Under the pieces are notes generated by a model. The model had not been told where the DNA came from. It saw nothing but the letters and a program-made list of their open reading frames with translations, and searched no databases. 49,319 nt of DNA from Gemmatimonadaceae bacterium (GTDB lineage Bacteria > Gemmatimonadota > Gemmatimonadetes > Gemmatimonadales > Gemmatimonadaceae): positions 1-49,319 of the forward strand of contig JBBDYA010000010.1 in the NCBI GenBank assembly GCA_040902005.1. Reading direction: 5' to 3'. Positions 2-22,451 of the stretch are shown piece after piece; the first letter of the stretch is position 1, and every line of letters starts with the position of its first letter. A program made the position numbers and the translations under genes.

Positions 2-892
2 GAAGCGGTGCGCGGCGTGAAGGTCAGCGTGGGTGAGCCATTCTTCAACCGGATGGCGGTCCCGGCGATGGTGGCGCTGATCTTTCTCATGGGCGTTGGG
101 CCCGCGCTGCCATGGGGCAGCTGCACGTGGGCTGAAGCGCGCAGACGGTTGTTCCCGCCTGCCATCGGCGCCGTCATTCTCGGCGCGATCGCGGTCCTCG
201 CCGGCGCCCGAACGATCAGCGTGATCCTTGCGTTCGCTCTGGTGGGGTACGCCGCAACCGGCAACCTGCGGGAATACTGGATCGGCATGCGCGCTCGACG
301 CCGCGCACATGGCGAGAGTTGGGCGACGGCGCTGGTGCGTCTCATCCGCGGCAATCGCCGCCGCTACGGCGGCTACGTGGCGCACATCGGCGTGCTATTC
401 GTCGCGCTTGGTGTCACGGCGTCGTCCGCGTTCCGTTCGGAGCGCGAAGCCACGCTCGTGCCGGGCGGGTCGCTCACGGTCGCCGGACAGACGGTGCGCC
501 TGAAGAGCGTGTGGGGTCGCGAGGAACCACAGCGATCCGTGATCGGCGCCACGCTGGAGGTGCTCGGCACTGACGGCGCGGTGATCGGCACCATCGCGCC
601 ACGCATGAACTATTACCGCGTATCGGACCAGCCCGTCCCGACGCCGGATGTCCGCAGCGGCTTGCGCGGCGATCTCTACGTCAATCTCATGGCGTTCGAC
701 GCCAACGGCGCCAACGCGACCGTGAAGGTGATCGTCGAGCCGCTCGTGCCGTGGATCTGGTTCGGCGGATTCGTCATCGTGGCCGGCGCCGTCATCGGCC
801 TGTTCCATCGCGGCCACCGTAGGACGGCACCGGAGTTCGTTACCGAAAGTGCCCCAACACCGGATCCGGCTCTGGCCACGGCGGCTCCGTGA
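2..892 (+). CDS. ccmF: Cytochrome c heme lyase CcmF, C-terminal part (5'-truncated by window edge)
   Basis: SVGEPFFN, RRYGGYVAHIG and PLVPWIWFGG motifs typical of the CcmF C-terminus; the frame is open from the window start; upstream of ccmG/ccmH-like genes. Confidence 0.93.
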   Translation, partial: EAVRGVKVSVGEPFFNRMAVPAMVALIFLMGVGPALPWGSCTWAEARRRLFPPAIGAVILGAIAVLAGARTISVILAFALVGYAATGNLREYWIGMRARRRAHGESWATALVRLIRGNRRRYGGYVAHIGVLFVALGVTASSAFRSEREATLVPGGSLTVAGQTVRLKSVWGREEPQRSVIGATLEVLGTDGAVIGTIAPRMNYYRVSDQPVPTPDVRSGLRGDLYVNLMAFDANGANATVKVIVEPLVPWIWFGGFVIVAGAVIGLFHRGHRRTAPEFVTESAPTPDPALATAAP

Positions 893-1482
893 ACTGGAGG
901 CGCGCGTTCATCGCCATGGTCGCCGCGGTGCCGATCATCGCGCTGTTCGCGTTTGGCTTCACCCGCAATCCGGCTGAAATCCCCTCTCCCCTTCCCGGGC
1001 GCGATGCCCCAGCGTGGGCCCTCGCGGTTTTTGCGCCCGGCGAACCGCCGCTCGCGCGGCCGGTTGGCGATACGCTCCGTCTCCACGACCTGCTCGGCAA
1101 AGTGGTCGTCGTGAATTTCTGGGCCTCGTGGTGTCTCGCGTGCCGCGACGAGCATGTCCCGCTCAGTGAGACCGCGCGTCACTACGCGGACCGGCCGGCG
1201 CAGTTCATTGGTGTGCTGTACAACGATCGGCCGTCCGCGGGGATACGCTGGATCACACAAATGGGCGGCCAGAGCTATCCGTCCGTGACCGACAACAATT
1301 CGCGGACAGCCATCGATTACGGACTGTACGGAGTGCCGGAAACCTTCATCGTCGACACGAAAGGACGTATCGCGTACAAGCACCTCGGACCCATTTCGGA
1401 GAGGGTGCTGCGTCAGTGGATCGACTCCCTACTGCCCAGGGCGGCGGGCGGCGATACGCCGCGGCGCGACTCAGTCCGGTGA
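889..1482 (+). CDS. ccmG: CcmG/DsbE/TlpA thiol-disulfide oxidoreductase
   Basis: N-terminal TM anchor, VVNFWASWCLAC and YGLYGVPETF motifs; GTGA overlap with ccmF. Confidence 0.9.
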   Translation: MNWRRAFIAMVAAVPIIALFAFGFTRNPAEIPSPLPGRDAPAWALAVFAPGEPPLARPVGDTLRLHDLLGKVVVVNFWASWCLACRDEHVPLSETARHYADRPAQFIGVLYNDRPSAGIRWITQMGGQSYPSVTDNNSRTAIDYGLYGVPETFIVDTKGRIAYKHLGPISERVLRQWIDSLLPRAAGGDTPRRDSVR

Positions 1483-1910
1483 AGTCGCTCGTTGCGCTCA
1501 TGGTTGTCGCGCTGTGCGCCGCCTGGCCCGCGAGAGCGCAGGACGCCGGGACGCGTCCAGCGTCAACTTCGACGGCCGACTCCGCGCTCGAGGCTCGAAC
1601 GGCCGCGATCGCGGCGACACTCCGTTGCCCCGTGTGCCAGGGTGAAGCCATCCAGGACTCGCCGGCGGAGCTCGCGCAGCAGATGCGCGCCGTCGTGCGG
1701 GACCGGTTGCGCGCCGGTGAAACACCGGACGAGATCAAAGCCTATTTCGTCTCGAAGTACGGCGAGTGGATCCTGCTCGAACCCCGCATGACGGGCCTCA
1801 ACATCCTGCTCTATGTTTTCCCCGTCGCGCTCATCAGCGGCGGCCTGGCGCTCGTCGCGGTCCTCGTCCGGCGATGGACTACACCGAAGGCAAACGCGGA
1901 CGAATCGTGA
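1479..1910 (+). CDS. ccmH: Cytochrome c biogenesis protein CcmH
   Basis: LRCPVCQGE motif, YFVSKYGEWILLEP, signal peptide and C-terminal TM; GTG start overlapping the ccmG stop. Confidence 0.92.
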   Translation: MKSLVALMVVALCAAWPARAQDAGTRPASTSTADSALEARTAAIAATLRCPVCQGEAIQDSPAELAQQMRAVVRDRLRAGETPDEIKAYFVSKYGEWILLEPRMTGLNILLYVFPVALISGGLALVAVLVRRWTTPKANADES

Positions 1911-2653: not shown

Positions 2654-3649
2654 TTAGGGTGCCGCCGCCTTCACCCTCCTCCCCGGCTCCACCACCTCGA
2701 TCGCCTCGACCGCTTCGACCGCCTTGGCTGCCTCGGCTGCCGGGCTCGCCGCGCCGTTGCGCGGAACGAGTCCCGCCGCGCCCATGATGCCCATCAGTGA
2801 CGGGACGTTCAATGAGTCGGCCAGTCCCGACGGCACCACCATCAGTGAGCCGCGCTTGACGATGCTCTCGTACAGCATGTTCATCGCGCGCAGGTTCATC
2901 GCCGCGGGGTGGTCGCGGTATGCGTCGGCCGCTTCCACGAACTTGTGGGCGATCTCCGTCTCCGCGGTTCCGAGAATGATGCGCGCCTGCCGCTCCCGCT
3001 CGGCCTGCGCCTGGCGCGACATCGCGTCCTCGAGCGCGGCGGGAATGATGACGTCGCGAATCTCGACGGACTGCACCTGGATTCCCCAGTTCTGCATCTT
3101 CTGCTCGAGCGCCAGCTTGAGCCCATGTCCGAGCTCGACGCGAGACTGGATCAGTTCCGCGAGATCATGCTTGCCAATGGCGTCGCGTAGCGCGGTCTGC
3201 GCCGAGAGGATGACCGCCTCGTCGTAGTCCTGCACCTCCAGCGCCGCGCGCTCCGCGTCCCGGACGATCCAGAACGCGATGGCGTCGACGTTGACCGGCA
3301 CGGTGTCGCGCGTCAGACACGATTCGGCGCCAAAGGCGGTGGTCCGGATGCGTTGATCGATGGTGTAGGCGATGCGGTCGAGGATCGGTAAAACGGCAAA
3401 GTACCCGGGGCCTCGCAGTCCGCGGTAGCGCCCAAGCCGCATGAGCACCGCTTTCTCCCACTGGTCGGTGTACTTGATCGACGCGGCGAGAAAGATCCAC
3501 ACCCCCACGCCCGCGGCGGCCACCAGCGGGAGCGGCACGCCCGTGATGAACAGCGCCCCAGCCAGCCCGGCACCGCCGATCAGCCCTGCTGCAAGAGCGG
3601 CGAAGGAGTAGCGGGTGTCGTTCGGAGTTTTTCGGGTCATGTTCATCAC
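2654..3649 (-). CDS. SPFH/stomatin (slipin) family protein
   Basis: LTRDTVPVNVDA, AQTALRDAIG, VEIRDV and AMSRQAQAERER are stomatin hallmarks; the start may be ATG at 3640. Confidence 0.92.
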   Translation of the reverse strand: MMNMTRKTPNDTRYSFAALAAGLIGGAGLAGALFITGVPLPLVAAAGVGVWIFLAASIKYTDQWEKAVLMRLGRYRGLRGPGYFAVLPILDRIAYTIDQRIRTTAFGAESCLTRDTVPVNVDAIAFWIVRDAERAALEVQDYDEAVILSAQTALRDAIGKHDLAELIQSRVELGHGLKLALEQKMQNWGIQVQSVEIRDVIIPAALEDAMSRQAQAERERQARIILGTAETEIAHKFVEAADAYRDHPAAMNLRAMNMLYESIVKRGSLMVVPSGLADSLNVPSLMGIMGAAGLVPRNGAASPAAEAAKAVEAVEAIEVVEPGRRVKAAAP

Positions 3650-3688: not shown

Positions 3689-4978
3689 CTATTTCGTGCG
3701 CACGGGGCGCACGTCTTTTGGTTTCGCGCGGTTGCTGCGGGGACGCACGATCTGCGCGACACGCGTTTCGTCGATGTACGGGCTGCGCGCTTCGCCGAGC
3801 TCGATGGGAAGCGCCACGCGGACGAGCACCGTGAGAACGAACAGGCCGAGCGCCCACACGCCCGCGGTCACGCCCAGCTCGACCAGCGTTGGCGTGTACT
3901 CGACGATTTCGCCCAGCGGCGACGGGATGAACCCGGGCACCACCAGCCCCAGCCCTTTCTCGATCCAGATGCTGACGAACAGCACCGCGCAGGCAGGCAT
4001 CAGCCAGCGCGGATTGCGGCGCAACGGGTGGATCATCAGGGCGGTCGTCGCCAGCACGTTCAGCGCGATCGCCGTCCAGATCCACGGCACCAGCGCGTTG
4101 TGGCCGTCGATGCCGAAGAACAGGTACTTCGCGTTGATGCCGTGATGCGTCGGTGAGTAGAACTTGTAGAACAGCTCCGAGCCAAGCATCACGATGTTGA
4201 TCTGCGCCGCGACCGTCGTGACCAGCGCGAGCTTGGTGAAGGCGCCGTCGGCGATTTCGTATTTCGTCTCCTTGCGTATGAACCACAGGAGCAGAATCAC
4301 GAACGCGGGGCCGGCGGTGAACGCCGACGCGAGAAAGCGCGGGCCGAGCAGCGCGGTATTCCAGAACGGCCGCGCCGGCAGTCCCGCCAGGAGGAACGCC
4401 GTCACCAGGTGAATGCTCACCGCCCACATCACGGCGATGTACATCCAGGGGAGGTACTTCTTCTTCTCCGGCGTACGCCCGCCGTAGCGGCTGTACAGGA
4501 TGTAAAACGGAATGGCGAGATTGAGCGCCAGATAGCCGTTCAGCACCAGCACGTCCCAGGCTAGGAGCGACCGAGGCCAGTTCAGAAAGCCGATGCCCGG
4601 CATGAGGTGCCAACCGGCCAGCGGGTTGCCGATGTCGACCACCACGAACGTGAGGCACATGACCAGGGCGGCCACGGCAACGGCCTCCGCCATGAGCACC
4701 GCGCGGCCGAAGTCGACGTCCTGCAGGATGTAGGCGGGAAGCACCAGCATCATGGCGGCGGCCGCCAGGCCGACGAGGAATGTGAAGTTGGAGATGTAGA
4801 GTCCCCAGCTCACGTGATCGTTCAGTCCCGTGACGCCCAGTCCATACCGCAGCTGAATGCCATACGCGTACCCGCCGACGAGCATGATGAGCGTCAGGCT
4901 GCCCATCCAGAGGTGGTAGCGCCGGCCCCCGGAGGTCGCCGCGTGGAGCGCGTGCAGCGCGAATGGCTTCAGGTGCAC
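3689..4978 (-). CDS. NrfD/PsrC/DsrP-family integral membrane quinol-interacting subunit
   Basis: About 10 hydrophobic helices; GLGVTGLNDHVSWGLYISNFTFLVG and SLLAWD motifs of the NrfD/DsrP family. Confidence 0.9.
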   Translation of the reverse strand: MHLKPFALHALHAATSGGRRYHLWMGSLTLIMLVGGYAYGIQLRYGLGVTGLNDHVSWGLYISNFTFLVGLAAAAMMLVLPAYILQDVDFGRAVLMAEAVAVAALVMCLTFVVVDIGNPLAGWHLMPGIGFLNWPRSLLAWDVLVLNGYLALNLAIPFYILYSRYGGRTPEKKKYLPWMYIAVMWAVSIHLVTAFLLAGLPARPFWNTALLGPRFLASAFTAGPAFVILLLWFIRKETKYEIADGAFTKLALVTTVAAQINIVMLGSELFYKFYSPTHHGINAKYLFFGIDGHNALVPWIWTAIALNVLATTALMIHPLRRNPRWLMPACAVLFVSIWIEKGLGLVVPGFIPSPLGEIVEYTPTLVELGVTAGVWALGLFVLTVLVRVALPIELGEARSPYIDETRVAQIVRPRSNRAKPKDVRPVRTK

Positions 4979-4985
4979 GATCGCC

Positions 4986-5963
4986 TCAGTCGGTGAAATA
5001 CCAGAAGCGCGGCTCGGTCTTCAAGTCTTCCTTCAGCCGGAACACGCGCTTGTTCGCGAGCACCCACCGGATCTCCGAGCTCGGATCGAGCAAATTTCCA
5101 AACACCCGCGCTCCAGTCGGACAAGCTTCCGCGCAGGCCGGGAGCCGGCCCTGCCGGGTCCGATGGATGCAGAAGTGGCACTTCTCGACCACGCCCACTT
5201 TGCGTTCGCGGTTGCCCAGGTAGTGCTGGTTCGGGTTCAACTCGGCGACTGGCACTTCCGGCGCGCTCCAGTTGAAGCGGCGCGCCCAATACGGGCAGGC
5301 GGCCATGCAGTAGCGGCAGCCAATGCACCAGTCGTAGTCGATGACGGTGATGCCGTCGGGTTCCTGCCAGGTGGCGCCGACGGGGCAGACCTTCACGCAT
5401 GGGGGATCCGCGCATTGAAAGCACTGGGTTCCCATATAGAAGTGACCCTGCGCCGGCACCTCGTGCTGGAAGGTGGCGTCGGCGTGGTCGAGATCGACGA
5501 TACCGTCCTCCATCTCGAAAATGCGGATGTACTGCGTGGCCGCGCGGCGGTCGAGATTGTTCTCGTTGATGCAGGCCTCGACGCAGCTTCGAAATCCCTT
5601 GCACTTCGAGATGTTGAAGGCGTAACCGAACACGACGCCCGGCTGGGCGCCGGTCGACTGTATCGTGACGTCGGCACCTTGTTTGATCTTCGCGATGCGC
5701 TCGAGACGCGCGATGGTCTCGGCCCGTTCGGCTTCCGTCATGACGCGGTAGTTGCCTTTGATGTACTCCCGCCAAGCGAGGAGCTTCATCTCCCGCTCTT
5801 CGTCCGACATGGTGGTGAGCGGCGCGCACGCGCTCATCGCCTGTGAGGCAGCCGCCGCGCCGCCCAGGAGAATGGCCAGCGCGCGCCGCCGGTCGACGCG
5901 TTTCTGCAACATCGATCCGTCATCGGTGACGGCGACCGGCTCCGGTGTTCGCGCAGTGCTCAT
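4986..5963 (-). CDS. NrfC/DsrO-type iron-sulfur (4Fe-4S dicluster) protein with Tat-like signal
   Basis: DRRRAL twin-arginine leader; Cys groups CKGFRSCVEAC, CFQCADPPCVKVCP, CIGCRYCMAACP, CHFC..CAEACP. Confidence 0.92.
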   Translation of the reverse strand: MSTARTPEPVAVTDDGSMLQKRVDRRRALAILLGGAAAASQAMSACAPLTTMSDEEREMKLLAWREYIKGNYRVMTEAERAETIARLERIAKIKQGADVTIQSTGAQPGVVFGYAFNISKCKGFRSCVEACINENNLDRRAATQYIRIFEMEDGIVDLDHADATFQHEVPAQGHFYMGTQCFQCADPPCVKVCPVGATWQEPDGITVIDYDWCIGCRYCMAACPYWARRFNWSAPEVPVAELNPNQHYLGNRERKVGVVEKCHFCIHRTRQGRLPACAEACPTGARVFGNLLDPSSEIRWVLANKRVFRLKEDLKTEPRFWYFTD

Positions 5964-6721
5964 TGATCCCTGCCTCGGATTCGCTCGAGGCGCGGAGCGC
6001 GGAATGGGATGCGTGGCTCGATCGCGGGTTTGTGCGGATCGTGGCAGTCGGCGCAGCCCATGAGCACGCGCCGCCCCTGCCAGCCGTCGAGTCGCTTGCC
6101 ATGCGCGCCGCCCGCCCAGGCCTCAGCCTGCGCGAAGTGGCACTGCGCGCACAGCCGGTACGTGTGATCGAGCGTAACACGTTCGCCGCTCTTGAGCGCG
6201 AGGAACTCGACATTCCCGGCCGCATGGCAGGTGGCGCAGGCGCCGCCGGTCTGCACGGGGTGCGCTGTCTGGATGTTCTCGTGAGCGCCCACCACGCGCT
6301 TGTCAGCCAGCACCATGCGTCGGCCCAGGTGACACGACGTGCACGGGTACTGACCGAGGTCCGGCGCGCGCACCCGGAGCGACGTCCGCATGGTGATGGT
6401 GCCGAATCGCCTCGAAAGGGCGGTCGTGGGGTCCACGGTACGGAGCGCGACTTCGAACGGCTGGCTCCCCGGGCCCTGCCAGTTGTCGACCGGCGCTGCG
6501 TACACCGTCTGGAGCGCGCCAGGTTGGAGCGTCGCGTTACGGGTGGTCTCCAGCGTCAGGACTCCCGAGTCGGATTTCGCGCGTGCGATGTCTGGTGTCG
6601 GCTCGCCATGCGGCGCGCCGAGCGCTGCGCGGTCGGCCGCGCCGTCACGTTCTCCGCATGCGGCATTCATCCACACCACCGCGACCGAAATTGCCGCCAC
6701 GATCTCCCGGCGCCGGATCAT
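5960..6721 (-). CDS. Tetraheme c-type cytochrome, probable lipoprotein
   Basis: CTSCH, CATCH, CAQCH, CADCH; MIRRREIVAA..NAAC lipobox-like leader; ATGA overlaps at both ends. Confidence 0.85.
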   Translation of the reverse strand: MIRRREIVAAISVAVVWMNAACGERDGAADRAALGAPHGEPTPDIARAKSDSGVLTLETTRNATLQPGALQTVYAAPVDNWQGPGSQPFEVALRTVDPTTALSRRFGTITMRTSLRVRAPDLGQYPCTSCHLGRRMVLADKRVVGAHENIQTAHPVQTGGACATCHAAGNVEFLALKSGERVTLDHTYRLCAQCHFAQAEAWAGGAHGKRLDGWQGRRVLMGCADCHDPHKPAIEPRIPFRAPRLERIRGRDQ

Positions 6722-7527
6722 GGCGCGCCCTCGCCGCCACCGGCAGCAAGTCGCGCCGGGCGGACGAACACGTCTGCGCCCGTGGCCGCCGCCACATGGC
6801 ACTGGCGGCAGTTGGCCCGCTCCGGGTGAGCCGTCCGGATCTCCGCGACACCCGCGGGGGCGGCGTGGCATGCCAGACAGTTCCCGCGCATCTGCAGCGC
6901 GTGCGGAATCGGCGGCGGATTGCCGCCGCGTGTCACCTGCGTCAGTTTCGGCCAGTCGAGCGGCGTCCAGTTCACCGCGGAATCCCTCCACCGCGCGGCG
7001 TTCGGCGCGTGGCACTGGCGACAGCGGGCGCTGGGATCGATGCCCGGCAGCGGGATGGCCATGAGTTCAGCGTCGCCCACGTGACACTGCAGACACGCGC
7101 CCATTTCGGAATGCGGCGTCACCGGCACATAGGCCCCAAAACGCTGAGAGAATCCCCCGCGCTCGTGGCACGTCTTGCAGCCACCGGTCTGAAACTCCGT
7201 CGGGGTCAGCCCGTGCGGGATGCGCGGCGGCGCGCCCGGGTAGGCTCGAAGCGCGCGAAAGGTCGCCAGCGTGCGCGGATGCGCCGCGCGCCGCGCAGCT
7301 TGCATTGGCTCGATTGCCAACATGCCGGGGCGGATGCGGAACACCTCCGCTTCGGCGGCGATCGGCGTGCCGGCCTGCGCCAGGATGGGCACGGTGGCCG
7401 GTGCGGCCGTGCGGTGCGTCGTCACGCGCTCGGCCGCGAGGATCAGCGCACCCAGTGCCGTGACCGCCGAGGCGATGAGAAAGACACGCATCGGCAGAAC
7501 GGATGGGCGCCGCTCGGGGAATCTCAC
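6718..7527 (-). CDS. NapB-like multiheme cytochrome c (5 CxxCH, two NapB-type repeats)
   Basis: YPGAPPRIPH..CKTCH..CLQCH, CRQCH, NPPPIPH..CLACH..CRQCH; directly downstream of the napA-like gene. Confidence 0.82.
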   Translation of the reverse strand: MRFPERRPSVLPMRVFLIASAVTALGALILAAERVTTHRTAAPATVPILAQAGTPIAAEAEVFRIRPGMLAIEPMQAARRAAHPRTLATFRALRAYPGAPPRIPHGLTPTEFQTGGCKTCHERGGFSQRFGAYVPVTPHSEMGACLQCHVGDAELMAIPLPGIDPSARCRQCHAPNAARWRDSAVNWTPLDWPKLTQVTRGGNPPPIPHALQMRGNCLACHAAPAGVAEIRTAHPERANCRQCHVAAATGADVFVRPARLAAGGGEGAP

Positions 7528-9866
7528 CTGCCGCTCCTCGCGGGAAGTCGCTCCACGCTCACCGCGCAGGTGCCGGTATCGGGCTGCCCGGAAAGAGGGC
7601 AGGAGGCATCGAGCATCAACCGTCTGACGGGTAGCGTCTCGTCGAACGACGGCACGAAGAGTTGTCCCCGCTGGGGCTGCGACCGGTAGTCGATGCGCGC
7701 TTGGATTTCGAGTGAGCCGCGCCGGCTCGCGACGCGCACCGTCTCACCGTTCTGAACGCCGAGCCGCTGCGCGTCGTCCCGGTGCATCTCGAGATATGCG
7801 CGCGGCACCGCGCGGTGGAGTGTCGGGACGCGTTGCGTCATGGAGCCCGCACCCCAGTGTTCGAGCACCGGTCCGATATTGAGCCAGAACAGGTAATCGG
7901 CGTTGGGCGACTCGGCCGGTGGCTCGTGCGGCCGCAGCCAGATCCACGCGCGTCCATCCGGATGACCGTAGAAGTCGAACGCGCCGCGGTCGCCGTTGGC
8001 CGCCGGGTCGTGCGCGGTGTTGTAGCGCCACCTGGTCTCGCGTCCGTTGACGAATGGCCACATCACGCCGGACTTGCCGCGCAACTCGGAGAGCGGCGCG
8101 AGTGCGCTCCGCGGCTCGTCGTGGAATCGGCGGTACTCCTCCCAAATCTGCGCGACGTGGCCGCGGCGCTCCCACGGAAAGAGCTTGGACAACCCGAGAC
8201 GGCGCGCGACCTCGATCATCTGCCAGGCGTCGCTCATCGCGTCACCGGGCGGCGCGACCATCTGATCGAAGTGCTGCGTACGTCGCTCCACATTCGCGAA
8301 GACGCCTTCGCGCTCGATCCACATCGCCGCGGGCAGGACGACGTCGGCCACGTCCGTCGTCGGCGTGGGGTACGCCTCGGACACGACCAGAAAGCGATCG
8401 CTCTTCGCCGCCGCGCGGCGATACTTGCTCAGGTTCGGCAGGCTGACCATCGGGTTGGTCGCTTGAATCCACAGAAAGCGGATGTCGCCTCGATCGAGCG
8501 CGCGAAACATCTCCAGCGCGGTTCGGGTGGGCCGAGGGTCGATCTTCTCCACCGGAATGCCCCAGATCGCGGCGGCGCGGCCGCGGTCCTGATCGTTGTG
8601 CACCACACCTCGGGGGAGTGTGTGGGTCAGCGTGCCCGCGTCGTGTACCGCGCTTCCGCCGCTCGGCTGCCCCGTGATGCAGAACGGGCTGTTCCCGGGC
8701 GACGCGACTTTCCCCACGAGCAGATGGATGTTGTAGAGCACGTTGTTCAGCCACGTGCCGCGCGCGTGCTGATTTGCATTGGCGCCCCAGACCGACATCA
8801 CCTTGCGCGAACGATCGCCATAGACCGAGGCGAGCCAGCGGATACGCTCCGACGGAACCCCCGACAGCTCCTGGCCGCGTTGGGGCGCGTAATCGGCGAG
8901 AAACGCCACGTAGTCGTCCCACGTGACCGATGTGGCGTCGTTGGCCACGGGCGCGTCGTCGGAGAGGCCGTACCCGATGGCGGTCTTGCCACGCCTGAAT
9001 GCCACGTGCCGATCGACGAATTCGCGATTCACCAACTTGCGCGCGACGATCTCGTGGCAGATGGCGTTCGCGATCGCTATCGCCGAGTGCGGCGCGTGGA
9101 GCAGGGACTGGTCGGCGGCGTAGCTGGTGCGCGTGGTGCGCGTCGTCAGATCGATGATGAGAACGCCGCTGTCCTGCCGCCGGCGGTCCAGGATGCGCGA
9201 GAAAAGAACAGGGTCCGTCTCGGCGATGTTCGCGTCCCAGAGGACGAACGCGTCGGCACGATCGATGTCCTCGTAGCAGCCGATCGCGCCGTCCAGGCCG
9301 AAGCTGCTCTCGAGGCCGGCCATCGCGCTGGCCGCGTAGAGCCGGGCACTGGTTTCGACGTTATTCGTCCCCAGCCCGCCTTTGAAGAGCTTCGACGCGA
9401 CGTAGGCGTCCGCGATGGTCCACTGCGCGGATCCGTATACGGCGACGCTGTCCTTGCCGTGCTGTTGGGTGGTCTCGCGGAGCCGCTGCGCGACCAAGTC
9501 GAGCGCTTCGCCGATCGGCACCTCGACCAGGGCGTTATCGCGACGGATCATGGCGCGCGTGATCCGATCCCGTCCGTAGAGCGCCTGCACCGAGTAATAG
9601 CCTTTCGCGCACGCCAGTCCCTTGCTCACCGGTGAGTCCGGGTCGCCTCTGACGGCAACCGCGCGCCCTTTCTCGATTCCGACTAAAAGCCCGCAACCAA
9701 CACCGCACAGCCGGCAGGGTGACTTCTTCCAAATCGGACCTGCCTCGTTTTCAGTCCGATCGGCGTTCGCGTGCAGAAGCGCGCCGGGCGCGAGGGCCGA
9801 CCCGGCGGTGGCCGCCGATACGGCAGCGATCCGTCTGAGGAACGTCCTTCGATCGACAGTTCGCAT
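7524..9866 (-). CDS. NapA-family molybdopterin oxidoreductase homolog with degenerate active site
   Basis: Tat signal DRRTFL; CRLCGVGC-x27-CAKG [4Fe-4S] motif; collinear NapA motifs (QWT, ADAFVLW, NQH, TGQPS, EHW) but Mo-ligand Cys replaced by Tyr. Confidence 0.88.
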   Translation of the reverse strand: MRTVDRRTFLRRIAAVSAATAGSALAPGALLHANADRTENEAGPIWKKSPCRLCGVGCGLLVGIEKGRAVAVRGDPDSPVSKGLACAKGYYSVQALYGRDRITRAMIRRDNALVEVPIGEALDLVAQRLRETTQQHGKDSVAVYGSAQWTIADAYVASKLFKGGLGTNNVETSARLYAASAMAGLESSFGLDGAIGCYEDIDRADAFVLWDANIAETDPVLFSRILDRRRQDSGVLIIDLTTRTTRTSYAADQSLLHAPHSAIAIANAICHEIVARKLVNREFVDRHVAFRRGKTAIGYGLSDDAPVANDATSVTWDDYVAFLADYAPQRGQELSGVPSERIRWLASVYGDRSRKVMSVWGANANQHARGTWLNNVLYNIHLLVGKVASPGNSPFCITGQPSGGSAVHDAGTLTHTLPRGVVHNDQDRGRAAAIWGIPVEKIDPRPTRTALEMFRALDRGDIRFLWIQATNPMVSLPNLSKYRRAAAKSDRFLVVSEAYPTPTTDVADVVLPAAMWIEREGVFANVERRTQHFDQMVAPPGDAMSDAWQMIEVARRLGLSKLFPWERRGHVAQIWEEYRRFHDEPRSALAPLSELRGKSGVMWPFVNGRETRWRYNTAHDPAANGDRGAFDFYGHPDGRAWIWLRPHEPPAESPNADYLFWLNIGPVLEHWGAGSMTQRVPTLHRAVPRAYLEMHRDDAQRLGVQNGETVRVASRRGSLEIQARIDYRSQPQRGQLFVPSFDETLPVRRLMLDASCPLSGQPDTGTCAVSVERLPARSGR

Positions 9867-9982
9867 CGCGAGGGCATAAAGGGAGCATCGTGGCCCGTGG
9901 CGTGACCCTGCCGCGGACCCGTTTGATGTCATGCATACGTGCTCACCCGCGGGCCGGGAATCGTGTAAAGTGGAATTCCCTG

Positions 9983-10150
9983 TGAGGTTCTCACCGCATC
10001 GCATCAGGGATTCCCGTACAGACGCTTCGCCGTTCGGCGTGAAGCGCTAAACGATGCGGGGATACCCTGGATGCCTGCGTAGGTAGTTTTACTGACAGGC
10101 CATGTGGGGCAACCCCCGACTGTCCGAAAGCTCACGAGGAGAGTTCCTTA
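9983..10150. promoter_or_regulatory. Divergent promoter region with several copies of the 15-bp palindromic box
   Basis: TCAGGGATTCCCGTA (10004), CGGGGATACCCTGGA (10057), TAGGTAGTTTTACTGA (10080), TGGGGCAACCCCCGA (10105), GAGGAGAGTTCCTTA (10136). Confidence 0.55.
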
Positions 10151-10207
10151 GGCTGGGCCTGATACTGCAGATGTACGGCTTCGCACTTCTCTCTCGAGAG
10201 TGACGCT

Positions 10208-11773
10208 ATGCGCCAAGCACGATCGATCGTCCGAGCGCTCAGCCAGTTGACGACAGCATTCATCACGACGGTCTTCATCGCGGGGTGTTCCAACGAGAGG
10301 GTCGTCTTCCGTGATCGCGCGCCGTTCAATATCCCGGTTGCCGCCGCGGCAGGCTTCCTCGGGTATTACGACGTGGCGTCAAAGCAGACCACGTGCGGCA
10401 ACTGCCACGCCGACATCCAGGGAAGCTGGAAGGGCACCAAGCACGCGAGTGCCTATACGACGGTGAACACAAGTCCCGCGAAAGCCGATGCGTGCTACGG
10501 CTGCCATACCGTAACGGGCAACGGGAACAAGGCGGTCGGCACGGTGGCTGGACATGACGCGGTCAAGGAGGCGACGTACTATGACGTCCAGTGCGAAAGT
10601 TGCCACGGCCCGGGCCTCGAGCACGTCGAGGGCGTCGGCCAAGCCACGCTGGTGAGGCCGCTCGCGAGACTCAGCATGGCCGGCACGGGCAACTGCGGCG
10701 ACTGCCATTCAGGAGCCCATCAGCCATTCGCGGAGGAGTGGGCAGCCTCGAGACACGCGAATGTCAGCGCGTCGCGTGCGTCGAATGCCACGTGCGCCGG
10801 CTGTCACGACGGCCGCAAGGCGCTGCTGCGGTGGGGCGTCGACGACAACTACGCCGAGCGCGATTCGGCAACGGCCTACCAGCCGACGACCTGCGCCGTG
10901 TGTCACAATCCGCACGGCTCGAGCAACCCGAGTCAGCTGCGATTCTCGGTGACGTCACCCGACCCTGAAGAGAATCTCTGTGTCCGATGCCATCTGCGGA
11001 TTGCCGAGCCGACCGTCACGACGAGCTCACCACACGGACCGCAGGGTGCGGTGCTGTTGGGCTTCGCCGGCTGGCGTCCGCCCGGATTTGTGTACGACAC
11101 CGCGACGATCTTCGGGTCGCACGCCACCGAGAGGAACCCCAAACTTTGCGCGGGCTGCCACATCGCCAAGTTCACGGTGACCGACCAGCTGACCGGCGCT
11201 TTCTCGTTCCAGGCGACGGGCCACCTGATGCGCCCGATCCCGTGCCTCGACGCCACCGGCAAGCCGACCGCCGACAAAACGTGCGCCTATACGGCGACGG
11301 CGAGGTCGTGGCAGACCTGCGCGAGCTCGGGCTGTCATGGCAGCGCCACGGCCGCTGCAACCGTATTCAACGACTCCCGCGCCTTGATGAAGTCGTTCAC
11401 GGATCAGCTCTGGACCGACCTGAACGCCAGTGGCTCGATCCAGGCTTCGCCGACCGACGGCGGTCTGCTCGCCACCCTGAAAGGCTCCAGCTCGGCCGAA
11501 TGGAGCAACACCGACAACGTCATCACGCCGGCGGAAGGCGCCGAGTTCAACGCGCGTCTCTGCGGCGAGTTCAACCAGTCCACCGCCGATAACTCGAAAG
11601 GCGCGCATAACCCGTTCTTGTGCCGGGCGCTCCTGATCGCCACAATCAACTACGTGAAGAGCTACTACGGGCTGCCCAGCATCTCGGCAACCGTGCAGGC
11701 CAGCATGGACAGTGTGAGCCAGCCACGGTTATTGAGCGGGATGCACGTTTCCCGCGCACCACGCGGTAGGTGA
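10208..11773 (+). CDS. Multiheme cytochrome c lipoprotein (8 CxxCH + 1 Cx4CH)
   Basis: FIAGC lipobox; CGNCH, CYGCH, CESCH, CGDCH, CAGCH, CAVCH, CVRCH, CAGCH, CASSGCH. Confidence 0.9.
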   Translation: MRQARSIVRALSQLTTAFITTVFIAGCSNERVVFRDRAPFNIPVAAAAGFLGYYDVASKQTTCGNCHADIQGSWKGTKHASAYTTVNTSPAKADACYGCHTVTGNGNKAVGTVAGHDAVKEATYYDVQCESCHGPGLEHVEGVGQATLVRPLARLSMAGTGNCGDCHSGAHQPFAEEWAASRHANVSASRASNATCAGCHDGRKALLRWGVDDNYAERDSATAYQPTTCAVCHNPHGSSNPSQLRFSVTSPDPEENLCVRCHLRIAEPTVTTSSPHGPQGAVLLGFAGWRPPGFVYDTATIFGSHATERNPKLCAGCHIAKFTVTDQLTGAFSFQATGHLMRPIPCLDATGKPTADKTCAYTATARSWQTCASSGCHGSATAAATVFNDSRALMKSFTDQLWTDLNASGSIQASPTDGGLLATLKGSSSAEWSNTDNVITPAEGAEFNARLCGEFNQSTADNSKGAHNPFLCRALLIATINYVKSYYGLPSISATVQASMDSVSQPRLLSGMHVSRAPRGR

Positions 11774-11792
11774 ACCGAGCGCGCTCTCGGTC

Positions 11793-13829
11793 GTGATCGG
11801 CACTCGAGCGAGCGCCGTCGCCCAGGTTCTCCACTCGGCGGCGGCGCTTCAGCAAGCGCACGTCCCGCCCGCGGACTCGATCGTCGTCGAGTCGCCCCTT
11901 CCCGGTGGCGTTTCAGCGGTCGTCCGGTTTCTGCTGAACACCGTCCCGCCGTGGGTGCAAATGGGCGGGGTTGTCGTTGGGGCCGTCGTTGCCATATTCG
12001 TCCTCCGGCAACTGTTCCTGCGCCGCGCCGCGATCCGGGCGTGGCTGGCCTCCCGCACGCGCGGCGTCAGATTGGCGCTCGCGATGGCGGCGGTGGTGGT
12101 ATTCGCCGCCGCCGCGGGCGCGGGGACCGCGACCTGGAATTACACGCAGCACGCGAACGACTTCTGCATCGGGTGTCATGTCATGAACCCGGCGTTTCAG
12201 AAATTCGGCGCCGAGGCGAACAAGCACGCCGAGCTGTCGTGCCACGACTGTCACCAGCAGCCGCTGTCCGCCAGCGTGCGGCAGCTGTACCTGTGGGTCG
12301 CGGAGCGTCCGGAGAAGATTGGTGAACACGCGAAGGTGGCGAATCGGGTTTGCGAGACGTGCCACGTCACGGGGGACACCGCCACCTGGCAGCGCATCGC
12401 CGCCACGGCGGGACACCGCGTCCATCTGGAGTCCGACTCGAGCGCGCTCGACGACATGCAGTGCGTCTCGTGTCACGGCGTCGAGGTGCATCGATTCAAG
12501 CCGGTGAACGAGACGTGCGGTCAGAGCGATTGCCACAAGGCGAGCGAAACGGGGATCGTGCTCGGCAAGATGGCGACGCAGACGGTGCGGCATTGCACCA
12601 GCTGCCACGCGTTCACCGCTGACGTTCCCGCGCTCGCCACTCGGGACTCGGCGCGCGGCACGCTGGTCCCCGGCAAGGGGGAGTGTCTCGGGTGCCACGA
12701 GATGCAACAAGTCCTCAAGGACTTCAATGAGGGGAAAGACCCTCACGGCGGGAAGTGCGGCGCGTGTCACAACCCGCATACGCAGAAGACGCCGGCGGCG
12801 GCGGCGATGTCGTGCGCCACGGCGGGCTGTCATGCGAATTGGCGCGACGAAGCGTTCCACGTCGGCGCGAGCCACCGGCGGGTCGGCGCACAATGCCTCA
12901 CGTGTCATATGCCGCATGCCGCGAAGGTTGACGCGAGCAGTTGTGAAGGATGTCACGTGAGCGTGCGGGCCCGGGGAAAGCTGCGGCCACCCCTCCCGTT
13001 CGACACAACCAGGGCGCTGCGGCGCGTCGGCACGCCGGCCACACCGCCGCCGCCCGAGACCCACCCAGGATCCTGGCATTCCGTGTTGACCGGGTCGCTC
13101 CGCGAGGATGGTTCCGAGCCTGATTCCGGCGATGATGCGACGCTGTTCGAGCAGGACGAGACAATACCGGACGAACAATTCCTCGACGTTCGCCTGTCGC
13201 GGCCGCCGCCTGCCTCTGCCGACAGCTTTCCCCACGCGAGGCACGCGAAGCTGGCGTGCCTCACGTGTCATGAGACCGGGGCGGGACACGGCCGCCTCAC
13301 GTTCGAGCGGCCGCGAGGGTGTGCCATCTGCCACCACCAGGCGCCGGCGGCCGACAAGTGCGCGTCCTGCCACCGAACGGAGAGGTATGCGGGCCCGAAA
13401 CACGCGACGGTGACGGTGACGGTCCCCGGGCGTTCGCCCAATCCGCGGCCGGTAGACTTTCTTCACGCGCGGCACAGCGCGCGATCCTGCGTGGAGTGCC
13501 ATACTACGCCGGTCACGCTCTCGCCGGCACAGGCGCTGTGCCAGGATTGCCACAGCGAACATCATGCGGCTGACCGTACCTGCTCGTCGTGCCACGCGAT
13601 CGTCGAGCCCAAAGCCGAGCACAAGACGCTCGAGATGGCGCACCAGCGCTGCGATGCGTGCCACACCGCGACGACCGTCGAGCGCCTGACGCCGGCGCGA
13701 AGCTTCTGCAGTACCTGCCACGCGGCGAAGGCGAAGGACCACTACGACCGGAAGGAGTGCAGCGTCTGCCACTTTCTCGCTGACCCTGACGTCTATCGTT
13801 CGAAACTGATCACGCCTCCGCCAGGATGA
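11793..13829 (+). CDS. Membrane-anchored multiheme cytochrome (18 CxxCH + 2 Cx4CH) with NapC/NrfH-like N-terminal domain
   Basis: Two N-terminal hydrophobic helices followed by DFCIGCHVM (CxxCHxM); 20 heme motifs counted in the translation. Confidence 0.88.
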   Translation: MIGTRASAVAQVLHSAAALQQAHVPPADSIVVESPLPGGVSAVVRFLLNTVPPWVQMGGVVVGAVVAIFVLRQLFLRRAAIRAWLASRTRGVRLALAMAAVVVFAAAAGAGTATWNYTQHANDFCIGCHVMNPAFQKFGAEANKHAELSCHDCHQQPLSASVRQLYLWVAERPEKIGEHAKVANRVCETCHVTGDTATWQRIAATAGHRVHLESDSSALDDMQCVSCHGVEVHRFKPVNETCGQSDCHKASETGIVLGKMATQTVRHCTSCHAFTADVPALATRDSARGTLVPGKGECLGCHEMQQVLKDFNEGKDPHGGKCGACHNPHTQKTPAAAAMSCATAGCHANWRDEAFHVGASHRRVGAQCLTCHMPHAAKVDASSCEGCHVSVRARGKLRPPLPFDTTRALRRVGTPATPPPPETHPGSWHSVLTGSLREDGSEPDSGDDATLFEQDETIPDEQFLDVRLSRPPPASADSFPHARHAKLACLTCHETGAGHGRLTFERPRGCAICHHQAPAADKCASCHRTERYAGPKHATVTVTVPGRSPNPRPVDFLHARHSARSCVECHTTPVTLSPAQALCQDCHSEHHAADRTCSSCHAIVEPKAEHKTLEMAHQRCDACHTATTVERLTPARSFCSTCHAAKAKDHYDRKECSVCHFLADPDVYRSKLITPPPG

Positions 13830-15307
13830 CGCGGCGCTGCGCGCTGATCGCCGCGTCCATCCTCGTGATGGAGACCGCTCCGGCCGGGGCCCAGAATTAC
13901 CGTGTTCGCGTGGACGCGAGCTCGCAGGCCGTGTCGTTTCGCGGTCTCGTCTCCGACAGCATCGCGGTTGGGTTGGCGGTGCCATCCGCGAACGGAGGAT
14001 TCGAGACGCCGGATGGCCATGCGGTACGATGCGGCGCGGGCGAGTACTGCTTCTTCCTGCGGCCGGGCCCCGTGTTGCGCGGGATTCCTGTGACGACCTC
14101 CGCGAGCATGGTCCTGTGGGGCTTGGGCGTTCAGGGGCTGACAGTGCGCGCGACCGGTCGGGTCTTGGCGGATCTCGGCCGCGATCAGGTGTGGCCCGGG
14201 ACCGATCCGTCGGCGCAGCTCATCGAGGGGTATCTCGAATACGAGCGCTCGGCGGTCGTCGCGCGAGCGGGGCGTCAGCTCGTGATGTCGCGCCTCGAGC
14301 CGATCGGCTTCGACGGCGGCTGGCTCAAGGCTCGTTGGGACAACCCTTCGCTCACGTTCACGGGGTACAGCGGATGGGGCCTCGGACAAGCGGCCGCGCT
14401 TTCAGCGCTGAGTCCCGCGCTCAATCCGCTCGATGAGTGGCGGCCGCGCGACCGGCAGATCGTGGCGGGCGCCGAAGCGTCGTGGCTCCACCGCGACCTT
14501 GACGTCCGCGCGGAGTATCGGCGAGAGATCGACCCGCAAGACGACTACTTCGTCTCTGAGCGCACGGCGCTCTCGTTCGGTGCGCGCGCCGCTGCGTTTC
14601 GCGCGGCCGGCGGAATGGATTACAACATTGCCGAGGGACACTTTGGAAGCGTTGATGCCACGCTGACATATTTGCACCCGCGGTTTTCGGTGTCGGGGGG
14701 CGCGCGGCGGTACCGTCCGTACTTCAGTCTCTGGACGCTGTGGGGCGCCTTCAGCCCCGTGCCGTACCATGCGCTGAATATTTCCGCGCAGGTTCAGCAG
14801 ACTGGCTGGCTGTCGCTACGCGGACGCGGCGAACGCTATCGCTACGAGAGCGCGGACGTCTCCACCGCGCTCGTTCCCGATTTGCAGGATCGCGGATGGC
14901 GCGCGAGCGCCGGGGCCACCGCGACATGGGGCTCGGCCTGGACGCTGGAAGCCAACTACGGCCTCGAGCGGGGTCCGGGCGCTGCGGGAAGGTTCGCCGA
15001 TGGCACGGTGACCTACGCGCCCAACGAGAGGTACTCGTTTGATTTCTATGGCGGCACGATGGCGCGACCACTCGAGCTGCGCTACTACGACGCGACGAGT
15101 CGCTGGATCGGCGGCCGCACGGAGTGGCAACTCACCGCGCAGCGCCGGGTCTGGTGCGACATCGCGTTCGTCAACGACGATCGCGACAGACCCGATGCGA
15201 GCGCGTCGTCGCTCACGCAGTTCCGTCTCCGAGCGGGATTGAGTTTGGCGTTCGGCTCTGGCGCCGATCGTACGCCGCTTCCGCCGGCTCGACGGACGGG
15301 AAGATGA
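13826..15307 (+). CDS. Probable outer-membrane beta-barrel (porin) protein
   Basis: Signal peptide; many alternating aromatic/Gly/Arg amphipathic strands; terminal strand RAGLSLAF; ATGA-coupled between two multiheme genes. Confidence 0.7.
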   Translation: MTRRCALIAASILVMETAPAGAQNYRVRVDASSQAVSFRGLVSDSIAVGLAVPSANGGFETPDGHAVRCGAGEYCFFLRPGPVLRGIPVTTSASMVLWGLGVQGLTVRATGRVLADLGRDQVWPGTDPSAQLIEGYLEYERSAVVARAGRQLVMSRLEPIGFDGGWLKARWDNPSLTFTGYSGWGLGQAAALSALSPALNPLDEWRPRDRQIVAGAEASWLHRDLDVRAEYRREIDPQDDYFVSERTALSFGARAAAFRAAGGMDYNIAEGHFGSVDATLTYLHPRFSVSGGARRYRPYFSLWTLWGAFSPVPYHALNISAQVQQTGWLSLRGRGERYRYESADVSTALVPDLQDRGWRASAGATATWGSAWTLEANYGLERGPGAAGRFADGTVTYAPNERYSFDFYGGTMARPLELRYYDATSRWIGGRTEWQLTAQRRVWCDIAFVNDDRDRPDASASSLTQFRLRAGLSLAFGSGADRTPLPPARRTGR

Positions 15308-16812
15308 GCCCGCGGCGACGGGTGCGTCCGGCGGCGATTGTCGCGGCGGTAATCGTCGCGGCGGTGATCGTCGCGGCGCTGGCCTCCGGGACTGTCTTCG
15401 CCGCGCCGTCTGCCGTTCGCGTGTTGGACTCCCGATTCCCCCACGACAAGCACGGCAACGTTTTTCCTCTCTGCGCCACCTGCCACGCGGGAGTCGTCGA
15501 ACCGGGCCAGCCGATGTGGCCCGAACCGGCACGGTGCGTGTCATGTCACGACAGTGTGGTGAAACCGCGAATCGAGTGGGAACCGCGAACGGGTCCGCGC
15601 CCGGGCAATCGGCGCTTCACGCACGAAGCACACAGTCGTGCGGCCGCCGCCAAGAATCCAGCCGACAGCGCGCTGATCCGAAACTGTTCCGCGTGTCATA
15701 CCGAGCGCGGTGCGCCACGGATGACCGTGCAGAACGCCGTAGTCGGACAATGCCTCGATTGTCACGGACTCGAGGCGCCCCACGTGGATGTCGCGAGCGA
15801 CGCATGCGCGACCTGTCACGTGCGACTGACCGACGCGCCGGGTTTGACTCGCGACGATATCGCGCGCTTCCCCCGGCCTCAGTCGCACGGCGCGAAGGAT
15901 TTCTTACTCGGCGGCCACGGCAAGGCAGCGAAAGTACCTGGCATTACCTCGGGCCCGCTCGCGGTCGCGGCGAGCTGCGCCACATGCCACGCGCGCAATC
16001 TCTGCATCGCGTGTCATGTCAACGCCCCGGAATCGCCCGTGATTCGCGCGCTGGCGCTCGACGATCGGTCACCCGCTTACGCGTCGCTGCGGCTCGTGCC
16101 GGCGGGTCACGCGTCCGCCGACTTCATGCGGGCGCACGGCCGGGACGCGCAGCGATCGACCGCGACTTGCGCGACCTGTCATGCGCGGGAGAGTTGCATG
16201 AGTTGCCACGCCAGAGACCTGCCGCGCGCCGTGGCGTCACTGCCGGCCGCCGGCACGGGACGCGCGCTCGGCGCGCGGTTGACACGCGCTGCGCCATCGA
16301 GTCACACGCGGGAGTTCAGGGAACGACATGGGGCGGAGGCGAACGCCCGCCCGAGGTCGTGCGAGACTTGCCACGTGCGCTCGACGTGCCTCGAGTGCCA
16401 CCGTCCAGACGGTGCCCGGCAGTCTCGCTACCACGCGCAGGGGTTCCTGACGCGCCACCCGAGCTCGGCCTACGCGCGCGAAGCGAATTGCAGCGATTGC
16501 CACAACCCCGCGCAGTTCTGCCAAAGCTGCCACCAGCAGGCGGGGCTTGTCGCGACGTCACGAATCGGACCGAAGGGGTACCACGACGCTTTTCGCGGCT
16601 TCAGCCTGGGACACGGACAGGCCGCGCGCCAGAGCCTCGAGTCGTGCGCGTCGTGCCACGCGGAGCGCGACTGCACTGCGTGTCATTCCGCGGTGGGCGG
16701 CGGTTTCCGATTCAACCCTCACGGGCCCGGCTTCAACGCGGCGCGGCTCCGATCAAAGAACCCGTCCTTCTGCATCGCGTGTCATGGCCGCGCGATACCG
16801 GGCGGCCGGTGA
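15304..16812 (+). CDS. Periplasmic multiheme cytochrome c (16 CxxCH)
   Basis: Hydrophobic leader; 16 CxxCH motifs including five CxxCH-x4/5-CxxCH doublets; ATG overlaps the porin stop. Confidence 0.9.
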   Translation: MSPRRRVRPAAIVAAVIVAAVIVAALASGTVFAAPSAVRVLDSRFPHDKHGNVFPLCATCHAGVVEPGQPMWPEPARCVSCHDSVVKPRIEWEPRTGPRPGNRRFTHEAHSRAAAAKNPADSALIRNCSACHTERGAPRMTVQNAVVGQCLDCHGLEAPHVDVASDACATCHVRLTDAPGLTRDDIARFPRPQSHGAKDFLLGGHGKAAKVPGITSGPLAVAASCATCHARNLCIACHVNAPESPVIRALALDDRSPAYASLRLVPAGHASADFMRAHGRDAQRSTATCATCHARESCMSCHARDLPRAVASLPAAGTGRALGARLTRAAPSSHTREFRERHGAEANARPRSCETCHVRSTCLECHRPDGARQSRYHAQGFLTRHPSSAYAREANCSDCHNPAQFCQSCHQQAGLVATSRIGPKGYHDAFRGFSLGHGQAARQSLESCASCHAERDCTACHSAVGGGFRFNPHGPGFNAARLRSKNPSFCIACHGRAIPGGR

Positions 16813-16857
16813 TCGTGCGCTGATTCTCCGGTCGCCCGACATTGCCGGACTATTTTG

Positions 16858-16894
16858 GCGTGCAAACGCCGACTCCCCTTAAGGGAAACTCCGA
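16858..16894. promoter_or_regulatory. Pair of palindromic boxes 22 bp apart upstream of USP copy 1
   Basis: GCGTGCAAACGCCGA (16858) and TAAGGGAAACTCCGA (16880); conserved upstream of the paralog. Confidence 0.55.
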
Positions 16895-16955
16895 CGCCGG
16901 AAGTCCTTGTGGACCGGCACTTTGTCTCCTGAACAGGACGCCCACGGGAGGCTCC

Positions 16956-18237: not shown

Positions 18238-18283
18238 GGTACGTGAGGTACGCGCCGGGCCGACCAGCAATGCCGAATTATTT

Positions 18284-18320
18284 GGGGACAATCGCCGACG
18301 CGGTCTCAGGGAAACGCCGA
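18284..18320. promoter_or_regulatory. Pair of palindromic boxes 22 bp apart upstream of USP copy 2
   Basis: GGGGACAATCGCCGA (18284) and TCAGGGAAACGCCGA (18306). Confidence 0.55.
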
Positions 18321-22442: not shown

Positions 22443-22451
22443 AATCAGATC

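Follow-up and report, generated by a model that had tools for sequence, protein, structure and literature searches.

The locus and its operon

Contig JBBDYA010000010.1 of the Gemmatimonadaceae assembly GCA_040902005.1 was analysed over positions 1 to 49,319 of its forward strand, a stretch of 49,319 nucleotides referred to here as the window. The minus strand of the window carries, at 3689-9866, a five-gene operon headed by a homologue of the periplasmic nitrate reductase NapA that has no cysteine at the position of the molybdenum ligand (Cys-less NapA). Reading of the open reading frames (ORFs) reproduced the coordinates and the tight coupling given in the original prediction, an earlier description made from the DNA alone: three junctions overlap by 4 nt (GTGA, ATGA, ATGA) and one is a 7-nt gap. 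The dsrP-like gene is followed after 39 nt by a sixth gene encoding an SPFH protein, which is present in 48 of the 49 Cys-less operons having at least 5 kb of downstream sequence. In operon order, the features are:

7524..9866, minus strand: Cys-less NapA-like protein, 780 aa from the ATG at 9866 (profile search, alignment, AlphaFold model)
6718..7527, minus strand: pentahaem cytochrome c with five CxxCH motifs, membrane-anchored (Pfam NapB, alignment, one hydrophobic segment)
5960..6721, minus strand: tetrahaem cytochrome c with four CxxCH motifs, probable lipoprotein (motif count, homology)
4986..5963, minus strand: DsrO/NrfC-like Fe-S subunit with a twin-arginine translocation (Tat) motif (profile search, motif reading)
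3689..4978, minus strand: DsrP-like membrane subunit of the NrfD family (profile search, tree, residue alignment)
2654..3649, minus strand: SPFH/Band-7 (stomatin-like) protein, sixth gene of the operon (Pfam, synteny)

A Pfam scan of 42 ORFs of the window found no napC, napG/H, napD or molybdenum cofactor (Moco) gene, in agreement with the original prediction.

A NapA that lacks the molybdenum-ligand cysteine

The NapA-like protein scored 778 bits against the NCBIfam NapA model, below the cut-off of 904, and two intact relatives scored 952 and 982 bits, above it. Its best matches among solved structures are NapA proteins, and its AlphaFold model (mean predicted local distance difference test, pLDDT, 89.8) superposes on Cupriavidus necator NapA (3ML1) with a template-modelling (TM) score of 0.90 at 39% identity. 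An ESM Atlas search gave Nap clusters and nothing else. The QrcB model gave 75 bits. The protein is thus a NapA by fold and ancestry, not derived from QrcB or ActB, and the independent origin that had been suggested for it is borne out.

All five solved NapA structures have a Cys ligand, with Arg354 above the pocket, according to the available text of PMC13223375, from which the roles of funnel and pterin-patch residues are also taken. Numbered from the ATG at 9866, the window's protein retains the Tat motif (RRTFL), the [4Fe-4S] cysteines Cys51/54/58/86, Lys88 and Tyr90. The position of the molybdenum ligand is occupied by Tyr177 (codon 9338-9336), the Met after it by Ala178, the funnel Glu by Gly193 and the catalytic funnel Arg by His408, so that the protein was rightly called degenerate.

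Fifty Cys-less and 37 intact full-length NapA sequences were compared, a residue being counted as kept when present in at least 90% of the Cys-less set. The intact proteins have 147 near-invariant positions, of which the Cys-less set keeps 107 and, in part, 18 more; the other 22 are lost, including the molybdenum Cys, the next Met, the funnel Glu and Arg, and a Gly, an Arg and a His of the pterin patches. The ligand position holds Tyr in 36 sequences, His in six, Ala in three, Phe in two, Arg in two and Ser in one, and Cys in none of the 50. Divergence of the Cys-less sequences climbs most in segments 171-200, 356-415 and 736-773, and some lineages have a shortened or scrambled 403-411 loop. 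All four Fe-S cysteines and the Tat motif are present in 50 of 50, the NapB-interface Tyr in 48 and the funnel Asp192 in 45. In the pterin patches (E. coli 212-219 and 718-729), Gly213, Arg720 and His726 are lost in the Cys-less clade, and Trp212, Asn215, Glu218 and Val721 are retained, with His724 in 40 and Trp725 in 37 of 50 (E. coli numbering). The patches being only partly eroded, the sequence evidence for a "cofactor-less" protein is mixed and that label is unproven. A selenocysteine NapA, considered on account of "1 TGA" flags in sampled genomes, was ruled out, as the six stops shown are terminal.

Residual nitrate reduction by means of an unusual set of ligands is very improbable. Its fold, its length and most of the invariant positions are those of NapA, and databases label many of its homologues "nitrate reductase NapA"; however, the Cys ligand and the Arg are lost in 50 of 50 sequences, the score is below the NapA cut-off, and napD, whose absence leaves the E. 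coli enzyme inactive and degraded according to the accessible part of PMC10609526, is missing. Judged by these residues, nitrate reduction is almost surely ruled out.

Distribution and order of losses

A search for relatives, biased towards close ones, returned 74 loci, of which 56 are Cys-less, 15 have the Cys and three are unreadable; close relatives of the window's operon are from Gemmatimonadota. In an even sample of 401 Gemmatimonadota genomes, eight of them matched to the earlier loci by coordinates, a NapA-type match was found in 45; it is Cys-less in 23, intact and followed by the same genes in 10, of another Nap type in nine and of other kinds in three. The sampled genomes are kin, and these counts are not independent events. 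The degenerate form is no singleton, and isolated decay was ruled out by the 56 Cys-less loci and by the conserved clade that they form.

Cys-less NapA proteins form a single clade with support of 100, both with the 50 sequences and in a later tree made of 24 of them and 36 intact rows, from which two long-branch rows were left out. From an 88-row tree, loci with fewer than 740 aligned residues were excluded as partial, together with six duplicates and one locus carrying a frameshift. The clade is nested among intact Gemmatimonadota NapA, on a stem branch of 0.29. The sister group of Gemmatimonadota NapA consists of the same operon with intact NapA in Rokubacteria, Bacteroidota and Desulfobacterota, and the order napD-napA-cytochrome-tetrahaem-dsrO-dsrP also occurs, with intact NapA, within Gemmatimonadota. 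The full gene set with intact NapA was found at 17 loci, plus five more with napD in genomes of the family of locus L069; in Flammeovirga kamogawensis (NZ_CP076130, KM029_RS26130-26155) the annotation reads napD, molybdopterin oxidoreductase, cytochrome, hypothetical protein, 4Fe-4S protein and DsrP. The gene order predates the loss of the active site, and the five-gene set with intact NapA is ancestral. The synteny survey thus had two outcomes: the degenerate form is conserved with its full gene set (52 of 52 Cys-less loci having at least 3.9 kb downstream), and the same order occurs with intact NapA in several phyla. The idea of a complex built on an already disarmed NapAB scaffold is contradicted by the widespread, ancestral set with intact NapA and napD.

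Loss of napD accompanies the Cys-less form. Of 16 intact operons, 14 have napD upstream; of 63 Cys-less loci, none does. Genome-wide, 59 Cys-less genomes gave one marginal match (E 7.5e-4), against eight of 10 intact ones. G038 and G089, two genomes whose intact NapA is close to the Cys-less clade, carry the SPFH gene without a napD match (the G089 contig starts 285 nt upstream), and G038 also has a cluster of porin and multihaem cytochrome genes such as that adjoining the window's operon (described below). This fits, without proving it, an order in which SPFH and porin linkage came first, then loss of napD and then loss of the active site; the node joining G038 and G089 to the Cys-less clade is not resolved in the NapA tree. 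Since intact close relatives survive at 60-67% identity, the loss is recent and traceable.

Cys-less copies also occur in records titled Acidimicrobiaceae, Zixiibacteriota, Tepidiformaceae and Vicinamibacterales (L004, L023, L026, L039), by transfer or mis-binning. At the Planctomycete loci L072 and L073, napD-napA-cytochrome genes diverge from tetrahaem-dsrO-dsrP genes, the same parts in another order. A second Gemmatimonadota Nap type (L101, 7458-13299, and L110, 7468-12604, both minus strand) has an intact napA followed by an octahaem cytochrome with a multihaem HAO-type Pfam match and a cytochrome b, to which L101 adds a Rieske protein. Its NapA clade was found in nine of the 401 genomes, and the arrangement resembles the napA-pOOC idea for cable bacteria.

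The cytochromes and the quinol module

The pentahaem protein passes the Pfam NapB model (26.2 bits, cut-off 25.1), and its alignment consists of two NapB-like dihaem halves with a fifth haem in the middle; the equivalent cytochrome of more distant intact operons has four haems. The tetrahaem protein has a lipobox-like Cys22, read by eye, and is homologous to the tetrahaem protein beside stand-alone DsrO/DsrP homologues. Its identification as DsrJ was rejected, as a DsrJ query matched nothing in the first 20 kb of the window.

The DsrO-like subunit scored 186 bits against the DsrO model (cut-off 200). Its first cluster motif, C121-K-G-F124-R-S-C127, is without the second Cys, which is also missing from 46 copies of Cys-less operons, from 15 of 16 copies of intact operons (one was not parsed) and from ten further Nap-linked copies; ten stand-alone copies retain it. 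This loss predates the disarming of NapA. By analogy with NarH numbering, we take the affected cluster to be the one farthest from the membrane, perhaps a [3Fe-4S] cluster.

The DsrP-like subunit passes the DsrP model (399 bits, cut-off 350) and shares 45% identity with DsrP from genuine dsrMKJOP-dsrAB loci. Aligned to DsrP1, it retains the putative quinone-site residues Tyr61, Asp115, Ser137 and Asp142 and the gate Lys341, as these are named in the available text of PMC8076601. In an NrfD-family tree, a quick tree search with no QrcD sequence among its rows, the subunit was placed near DsrP and far from the ActC-like gene of the source genome (contig C45, long branch); its match to ActC in the PDB reached only E 1e-10 to 1e-7. 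The proposed check of the NrfD-like subunit thus led to DsrP and away from ActC.

The tetrahaem-DsrOP module also occurs without any napA (L126-L128, L149-L154, L160-L163), and no dsrM, dsrK or dsrJ was found by profile and Pfam among the window ORFs scanned. Tandem second DsrO/DsrP-like genes, often with an SPFH gene, were seen at L021, L031, L036, L037, L040, L057, L066 and L089 and form a distinct paralog clade at about 70% identity. In the Gemmatimonadota sample, dsrMKJOP-type genes adjoin dsrAB at L123, L124, L129, L131 and L132.

Relation to known systems

With NapAB (C. necator 3ML1, E. coli 2NYA) the window's system shares the fold, Tat export, the [4Fe-4S] cluster, the Lys, the interface Tyr and an adjacent NapB-family cytochrome. 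It differs in lacking the molybdenum-ligand Cys, the catalytic Arg and napD, in having a doubled, anchored NapB as its cytochrome, and in having a tetrahaem-DsrO-DsrP module instead of NapC or NapGH for quinol. None of the four Nap operon types in the accessible text of PMC13223375 has this module. The intact napD-napA-cytochrome-tetrahaem-dsrO-dsrP operon has the same genes in the same order and is the direct ancestor in the NapA tree; it differs in having Cys, Arg and napD, with SPFH in one of 16 cases and a porin link in one of 14. In a figure text of PMC10732223, two metagenome-assembled genomes are said to have an NrfD cluster downstream of their Nap genes; no paper characterising the intact variant was found in the literature searched.

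The closest likeness of the membrane module is the DsrOhPh-tetrahaem module of cable bacteria and some Proteobacteria, for which, in the part of PMC13047784 available, quinone-to-periplasm electron transfer is proposed and an earlier proposal as a candidate alternative complex III (ACIII) is recorded. Both combine a DsrP-clade NrfD subunit and a DsrO-like Fe-S subunit with a tetrahaem cytochrome, away from any dsrMKJ locus, and the window's module matches the published locus in composition. Loci of the order O-P-tetrahaem in the family of L069, which by composition and order probably correspond to the published one, are 28-35% (tetrahaem), about 49% (DsrO-like) and 37-39% (DsrP-like) identical to the window's proteins. 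In stand-alone copies, unlike the window's module, no NapA or NapB gene lies within about 6 kb and the first motif retains its four Cys. With DsrMKJOP, the window shares the DsrP-family subunit and its quinone-site residues, without dsrM, dsrK and dsrJ.

QrcABCD and ActABC have the same layout, that is, a multihaem cytochrome, a molybdoenzyme-fold subunit without catalytic ligand, an Fe-S subunit and an NrfD-type subunit (PMC6303296, in part). Here the molybdoenzyme-fold subunit comes from NapA and the membrane subunit from DsrP, a different ancestry, and the QrcB, QrcC and QrcD models gave 75, 149 and 52 bits where the cut-offs are 440, 400 and 570. The ActB-type fusion of molybdoenzyme fold and Fe-S domains is also absent, the two being separate genes, as are ActD, ActE and ActF. 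Of the Qrc/ACIII-like architecture that had been proposed, the functional layout stands; the membrane module is DsrOP-like and groups with DsrP, not with QrcCD or ActBC. Because the Cys-less protein derives from NapA and not from QrcB or ActB, any likeness to Qrc and ACIII arose independently; it is convergent, through the disarming of an existing Nap variant. Cofactor-less members of the dimethyl sulfoxide reductase superfamily named in the available parts of PMC10100899 and PMC6303296 are FhcB, Nqo3/NuoG, ActB and QrcB, all of which, like Cys-less NapA, kept the fold and lost catalysis, and none of which derives from NapA. On the features tested, the window's system falls outside NapA, Qrc, ACIII and DsrMKJOP, although its function is possibly Qrc/ACIII-like.

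No description of a Cys-less NapA or of its operon was found in a literature search that covered few subscription papers, and the supplementary NapA tree of PMC11316326 may include the clade.

The genomic neighbourhood

The start of the napA-like gene lies 341 nt from a divergent cluster of porin and multihaem cytochrome genes, and genes for cytochrome c maturation face the operon from its other end:

10208..11773, plus strand: octahaem cytochrome c, probable lipoprotein, divergent from the operon, first gene of the porin-multihaem cluster (CxxCH count, synteny)
11793..13829, plus strand: cytochrome with 18 CxxCH motifs, two transmembrane helices at its N-terminus and a weak NrfH-like domain (motif count, profile search)
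13826..15307, plus strand: outer-membrane beta-barrel protein with no Pfam match (AlphaFold, Foldseek)
15304..16812, plus strand: cytochrome with 16 CxxCH motifs and an MtrC/MtrF-like domain match, start codon not fixed (motif count, domain search)
8..1910, plus strand: cytochrome c maturation genes, ccmF C-terminus, ccmG-like and ccmH, facing the operon (Pfam)

The AlphaFold model of the barrel protein is all-beta (pLDDT 79.5) and its Foldseek matches are outer-membrane barrels, so the cluster would fit a porin-cytochrome conduit, a predicted beta-barrel flanked by multihaem cytochromes. By a hand count, 18 of 23 Cys-less genomes have a porin gene on the operon's contig no more than 20 kb away, and 25 of 33 Cys-less operons have porin or octahaem genes beside them, versus one of 14 intact ones. 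In the intergenic region 9867-10207, the best matches to FNR-, Rex- and CRP-like consensus boxes had at least three mismatches. The segment 16842-47886 encodes several universal stress proteins, a CBS protein, Hsp20, two P-type ATPases, a PLD-family protein, an acyl-CoA ligase and a PEP-utilising enzyme; such a set is frequent in low-oxygen regulons.

The source genome is 93% complete with 2.5% contamination, and at that completeness nrfA, clade II nosZ, narG and napD were not found in it. Its frames with at least three CxxCH motifs are confined to two nap/porin islands and one pentahaem gene beside ACIII-like genes. The second island (contig C6, about 9287-26078; L119) is an inverted copy of ccm, Cys-less nap and porin-multihaem genes at 75-79% nucleotide identity, a duplication or a binning artefact. 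The ACIII-like locus (contig C45, about 17900-25650, plus strand) comprises pentahaem, ActB-like, ActC-like and further genes, the names being inferred.

Function of the Cys-less operon

The operon is best read as descending from a periplasmic nitrate reductase independent of NapC and NapGH that has lost nitrate reduction. At a probability of about 0.5, its products would form a quinol:cytochrome c oxidoreductase in which Cys-less NapA serves as a molybdenum-free scaffold and which probably feeds the adjacent porin-multihaem cluster. In the ancestor, electrons would have passed from quinol through the DsrP-like and DsrO-like subunits, the tetrahaem cytochrome and the doubled NapB to NapA and nitrate. 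In the Cys-less clade the DsrP-like subunit would still oxidise quinol, and the DsrO-like Fe-S wire would pass electrons to the tetrahaem and then to the double-NapB cytochrome. Cys-less NapA, exported by Tat with its [4Fe-4S] cluster and presumably no working molybdenum centre, may bind and stabilise the cytochrome, a part played by QrcB and ActB in their own complexes. The equivalent cluster N7 of NuoG in complex I, which has a structural role, is a precedent for the retained cluster. The path would end at the haems or at the NapA cluster, and as there is no terminal catalytic site, electrons would leave from the haems. Their outlet is the least certain step: a periplasmic carrier, likeliest the 8-, 18- and 16-haem cytochromes with the porin, might serve extracellular electron transfer under low oxygen. 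The direction is taken over from the ancestor and might be the reverse.

The scaffold reading was judged the likeliest because the ligand residue varies, some lineages have a decayed funnel loop and napD is gone, while the Fe-S cluster, the interface Tyr and the Tat signal are kept. Several findings weigh against it. Around the former active site, Lys88 is retained in 47 of 50 sequences (Arg in three), Asn213 in 48, Glu216 and Trp210 in all 50, Gln400 in 46, His670 in 40 and Trp671 in 37, and about ten new residues have become fixed in the clade, among them Ser173, Gly193, Asp211, Asp218, Gly403, Asp409 and Gly672, which a dead site need not show. Cofactor supply is present, as moaC occurs in 52 and moeA in 54 of 59 Cys-less genomes. 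The rate of Cys-less NapA relative to the DsrOP pair is 1.89 versus 0.86 for intact NapA, about twofold. The source genome already has an ACIII-like locus, and haem-copper oxidase genes too. As to the outlet, members of the porin family were found in 180 of 401 genomes, most of which have no such operon; in the well-assembled Cys-less genomes G378 and G314 the porin lies on another contig; and an intact operon (L094) also adjoins a porin cluster. A shared low-oxygen island may thus account for the linkage. The 18-haem protein, whose NrfH/NapC-like match (E 9e-8) is below the cut-off, may oxidise quinol itself.

The residues and the cofactor genes bear on another reading, in which the protein binds a Mo- or W-pterin without an amino-acid ligand and acts on an unknown substrate as a quinol-fed terminal reductase or as an oxidase. 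The kept pterin-site residues and the new small and acidic ones around the site (His408 in 38 and Asp409 in 47 of 50) would be expected of it, the long stem branch agrees with it, and arsenite oxidase AioA and iodate reductase IdrA lack an amino-acid ligand (PMC10100899, in part). The source genome itself encodes moaA, moaC, moeA and a mobA-like gene, so the absence of Moco genes from the window is uninformative, and an argument from it to a missing cofactor was rejected, the pathway being present in most relatives as well. Against this, the pterin-patch Arg, His and Gly are lost in nearly all 50 sequences, as are Asn177, Asp266, Met375/Gly376 and Lys822 (C. necator numbering); the ligand residue is variable, the funnel loop has decayed in L051, L056, L066 and L115-L117, and napD is lost. 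A pterin enzyme is rated unlikely, though it is the main rival of the scaffold reading. An alternative Moco client is seen on contig C30 (about 8600-10650, minus strand), a formate-dehydrogenase-like gene with an in-frame TGA, probably selenocysteine, at the metal-ligand position.

The raised rate bears on the view that Cys-less NapA is a slowly decaying passenger, the enzyme having died after napD was lost and the operon being kept for its cytochrome and DsrOP genes. Long branches and internal deletions (L115-L117, L054, L062), the occurrence of the module without napA and the intact close relatives G038 and G089 without a napD match would agree with this. Pairwise dN/dS (Nei-Gojobori, on high-GC genes and with swaps of membrane-module paralogs possible) is, however, 0.12-0.18 in all 13 Cys-less pairs, versus 0.08-0.17 in eight intact pairs, and the 50 sequences have frames open over 740 or more residues with Tat and Fe-S motifs in every one. 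Moreover, the 401 genomes showed no full-length close DsrP-like gene (at least 68% identity) without napA; in this check G013 is cut by a contig end and G258 has an extra partial copy. The gene is relaxed yet maintained under purifying selection, and a mere passenger is improbable. Frameshifts in L012, L036, L048, L057, L058, L065, L068 and L071 are assembly errors or real.

Returning to the scaffold reading, a wider scenario can be offered tentatively. A DsrOP-coupled nitrate reductase may have been disarmed into an independent analogue of Qrc and ACIII, which would be the first loss of the molybdenum centre in the NapA lineage, with intermediates (gain of SPFH and porin linkage, napD loss, ligand loss) in living genomes and with quinol electrons rewired to an outer-membrane multihaem conduit in Gemmatimonadota.

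Implications

The Cys-less Nap operon is a real, conserved and apparently undescribed variant. A superfamily survey that demanded the expected ligand (PMC10100899, in part) would tend to miss this group. The clade is a recent, testable case of a molybdoenzyme turning into a scaffold or to new chemistry, with intact relatives as controls. Its intact parent looks like an undescribed wiring of Nap to the quinone pool, through tetrahaem-DsrO-DsrP, and offers a candidate role for the orphan DsrOhPh-tetrahaem module. In the even sample, the Cys-less form makes up 23 of the 45 genomes with a NapA-type match. Two Gemmatimonadota surveys, in the parts available, count napAB as nitrate reduction. As the Cys-less form is common and many homologues are labelled "nitrate reductase NapA", the nitrate-reduction potential of the Gemmatimonadota may be over-counted.

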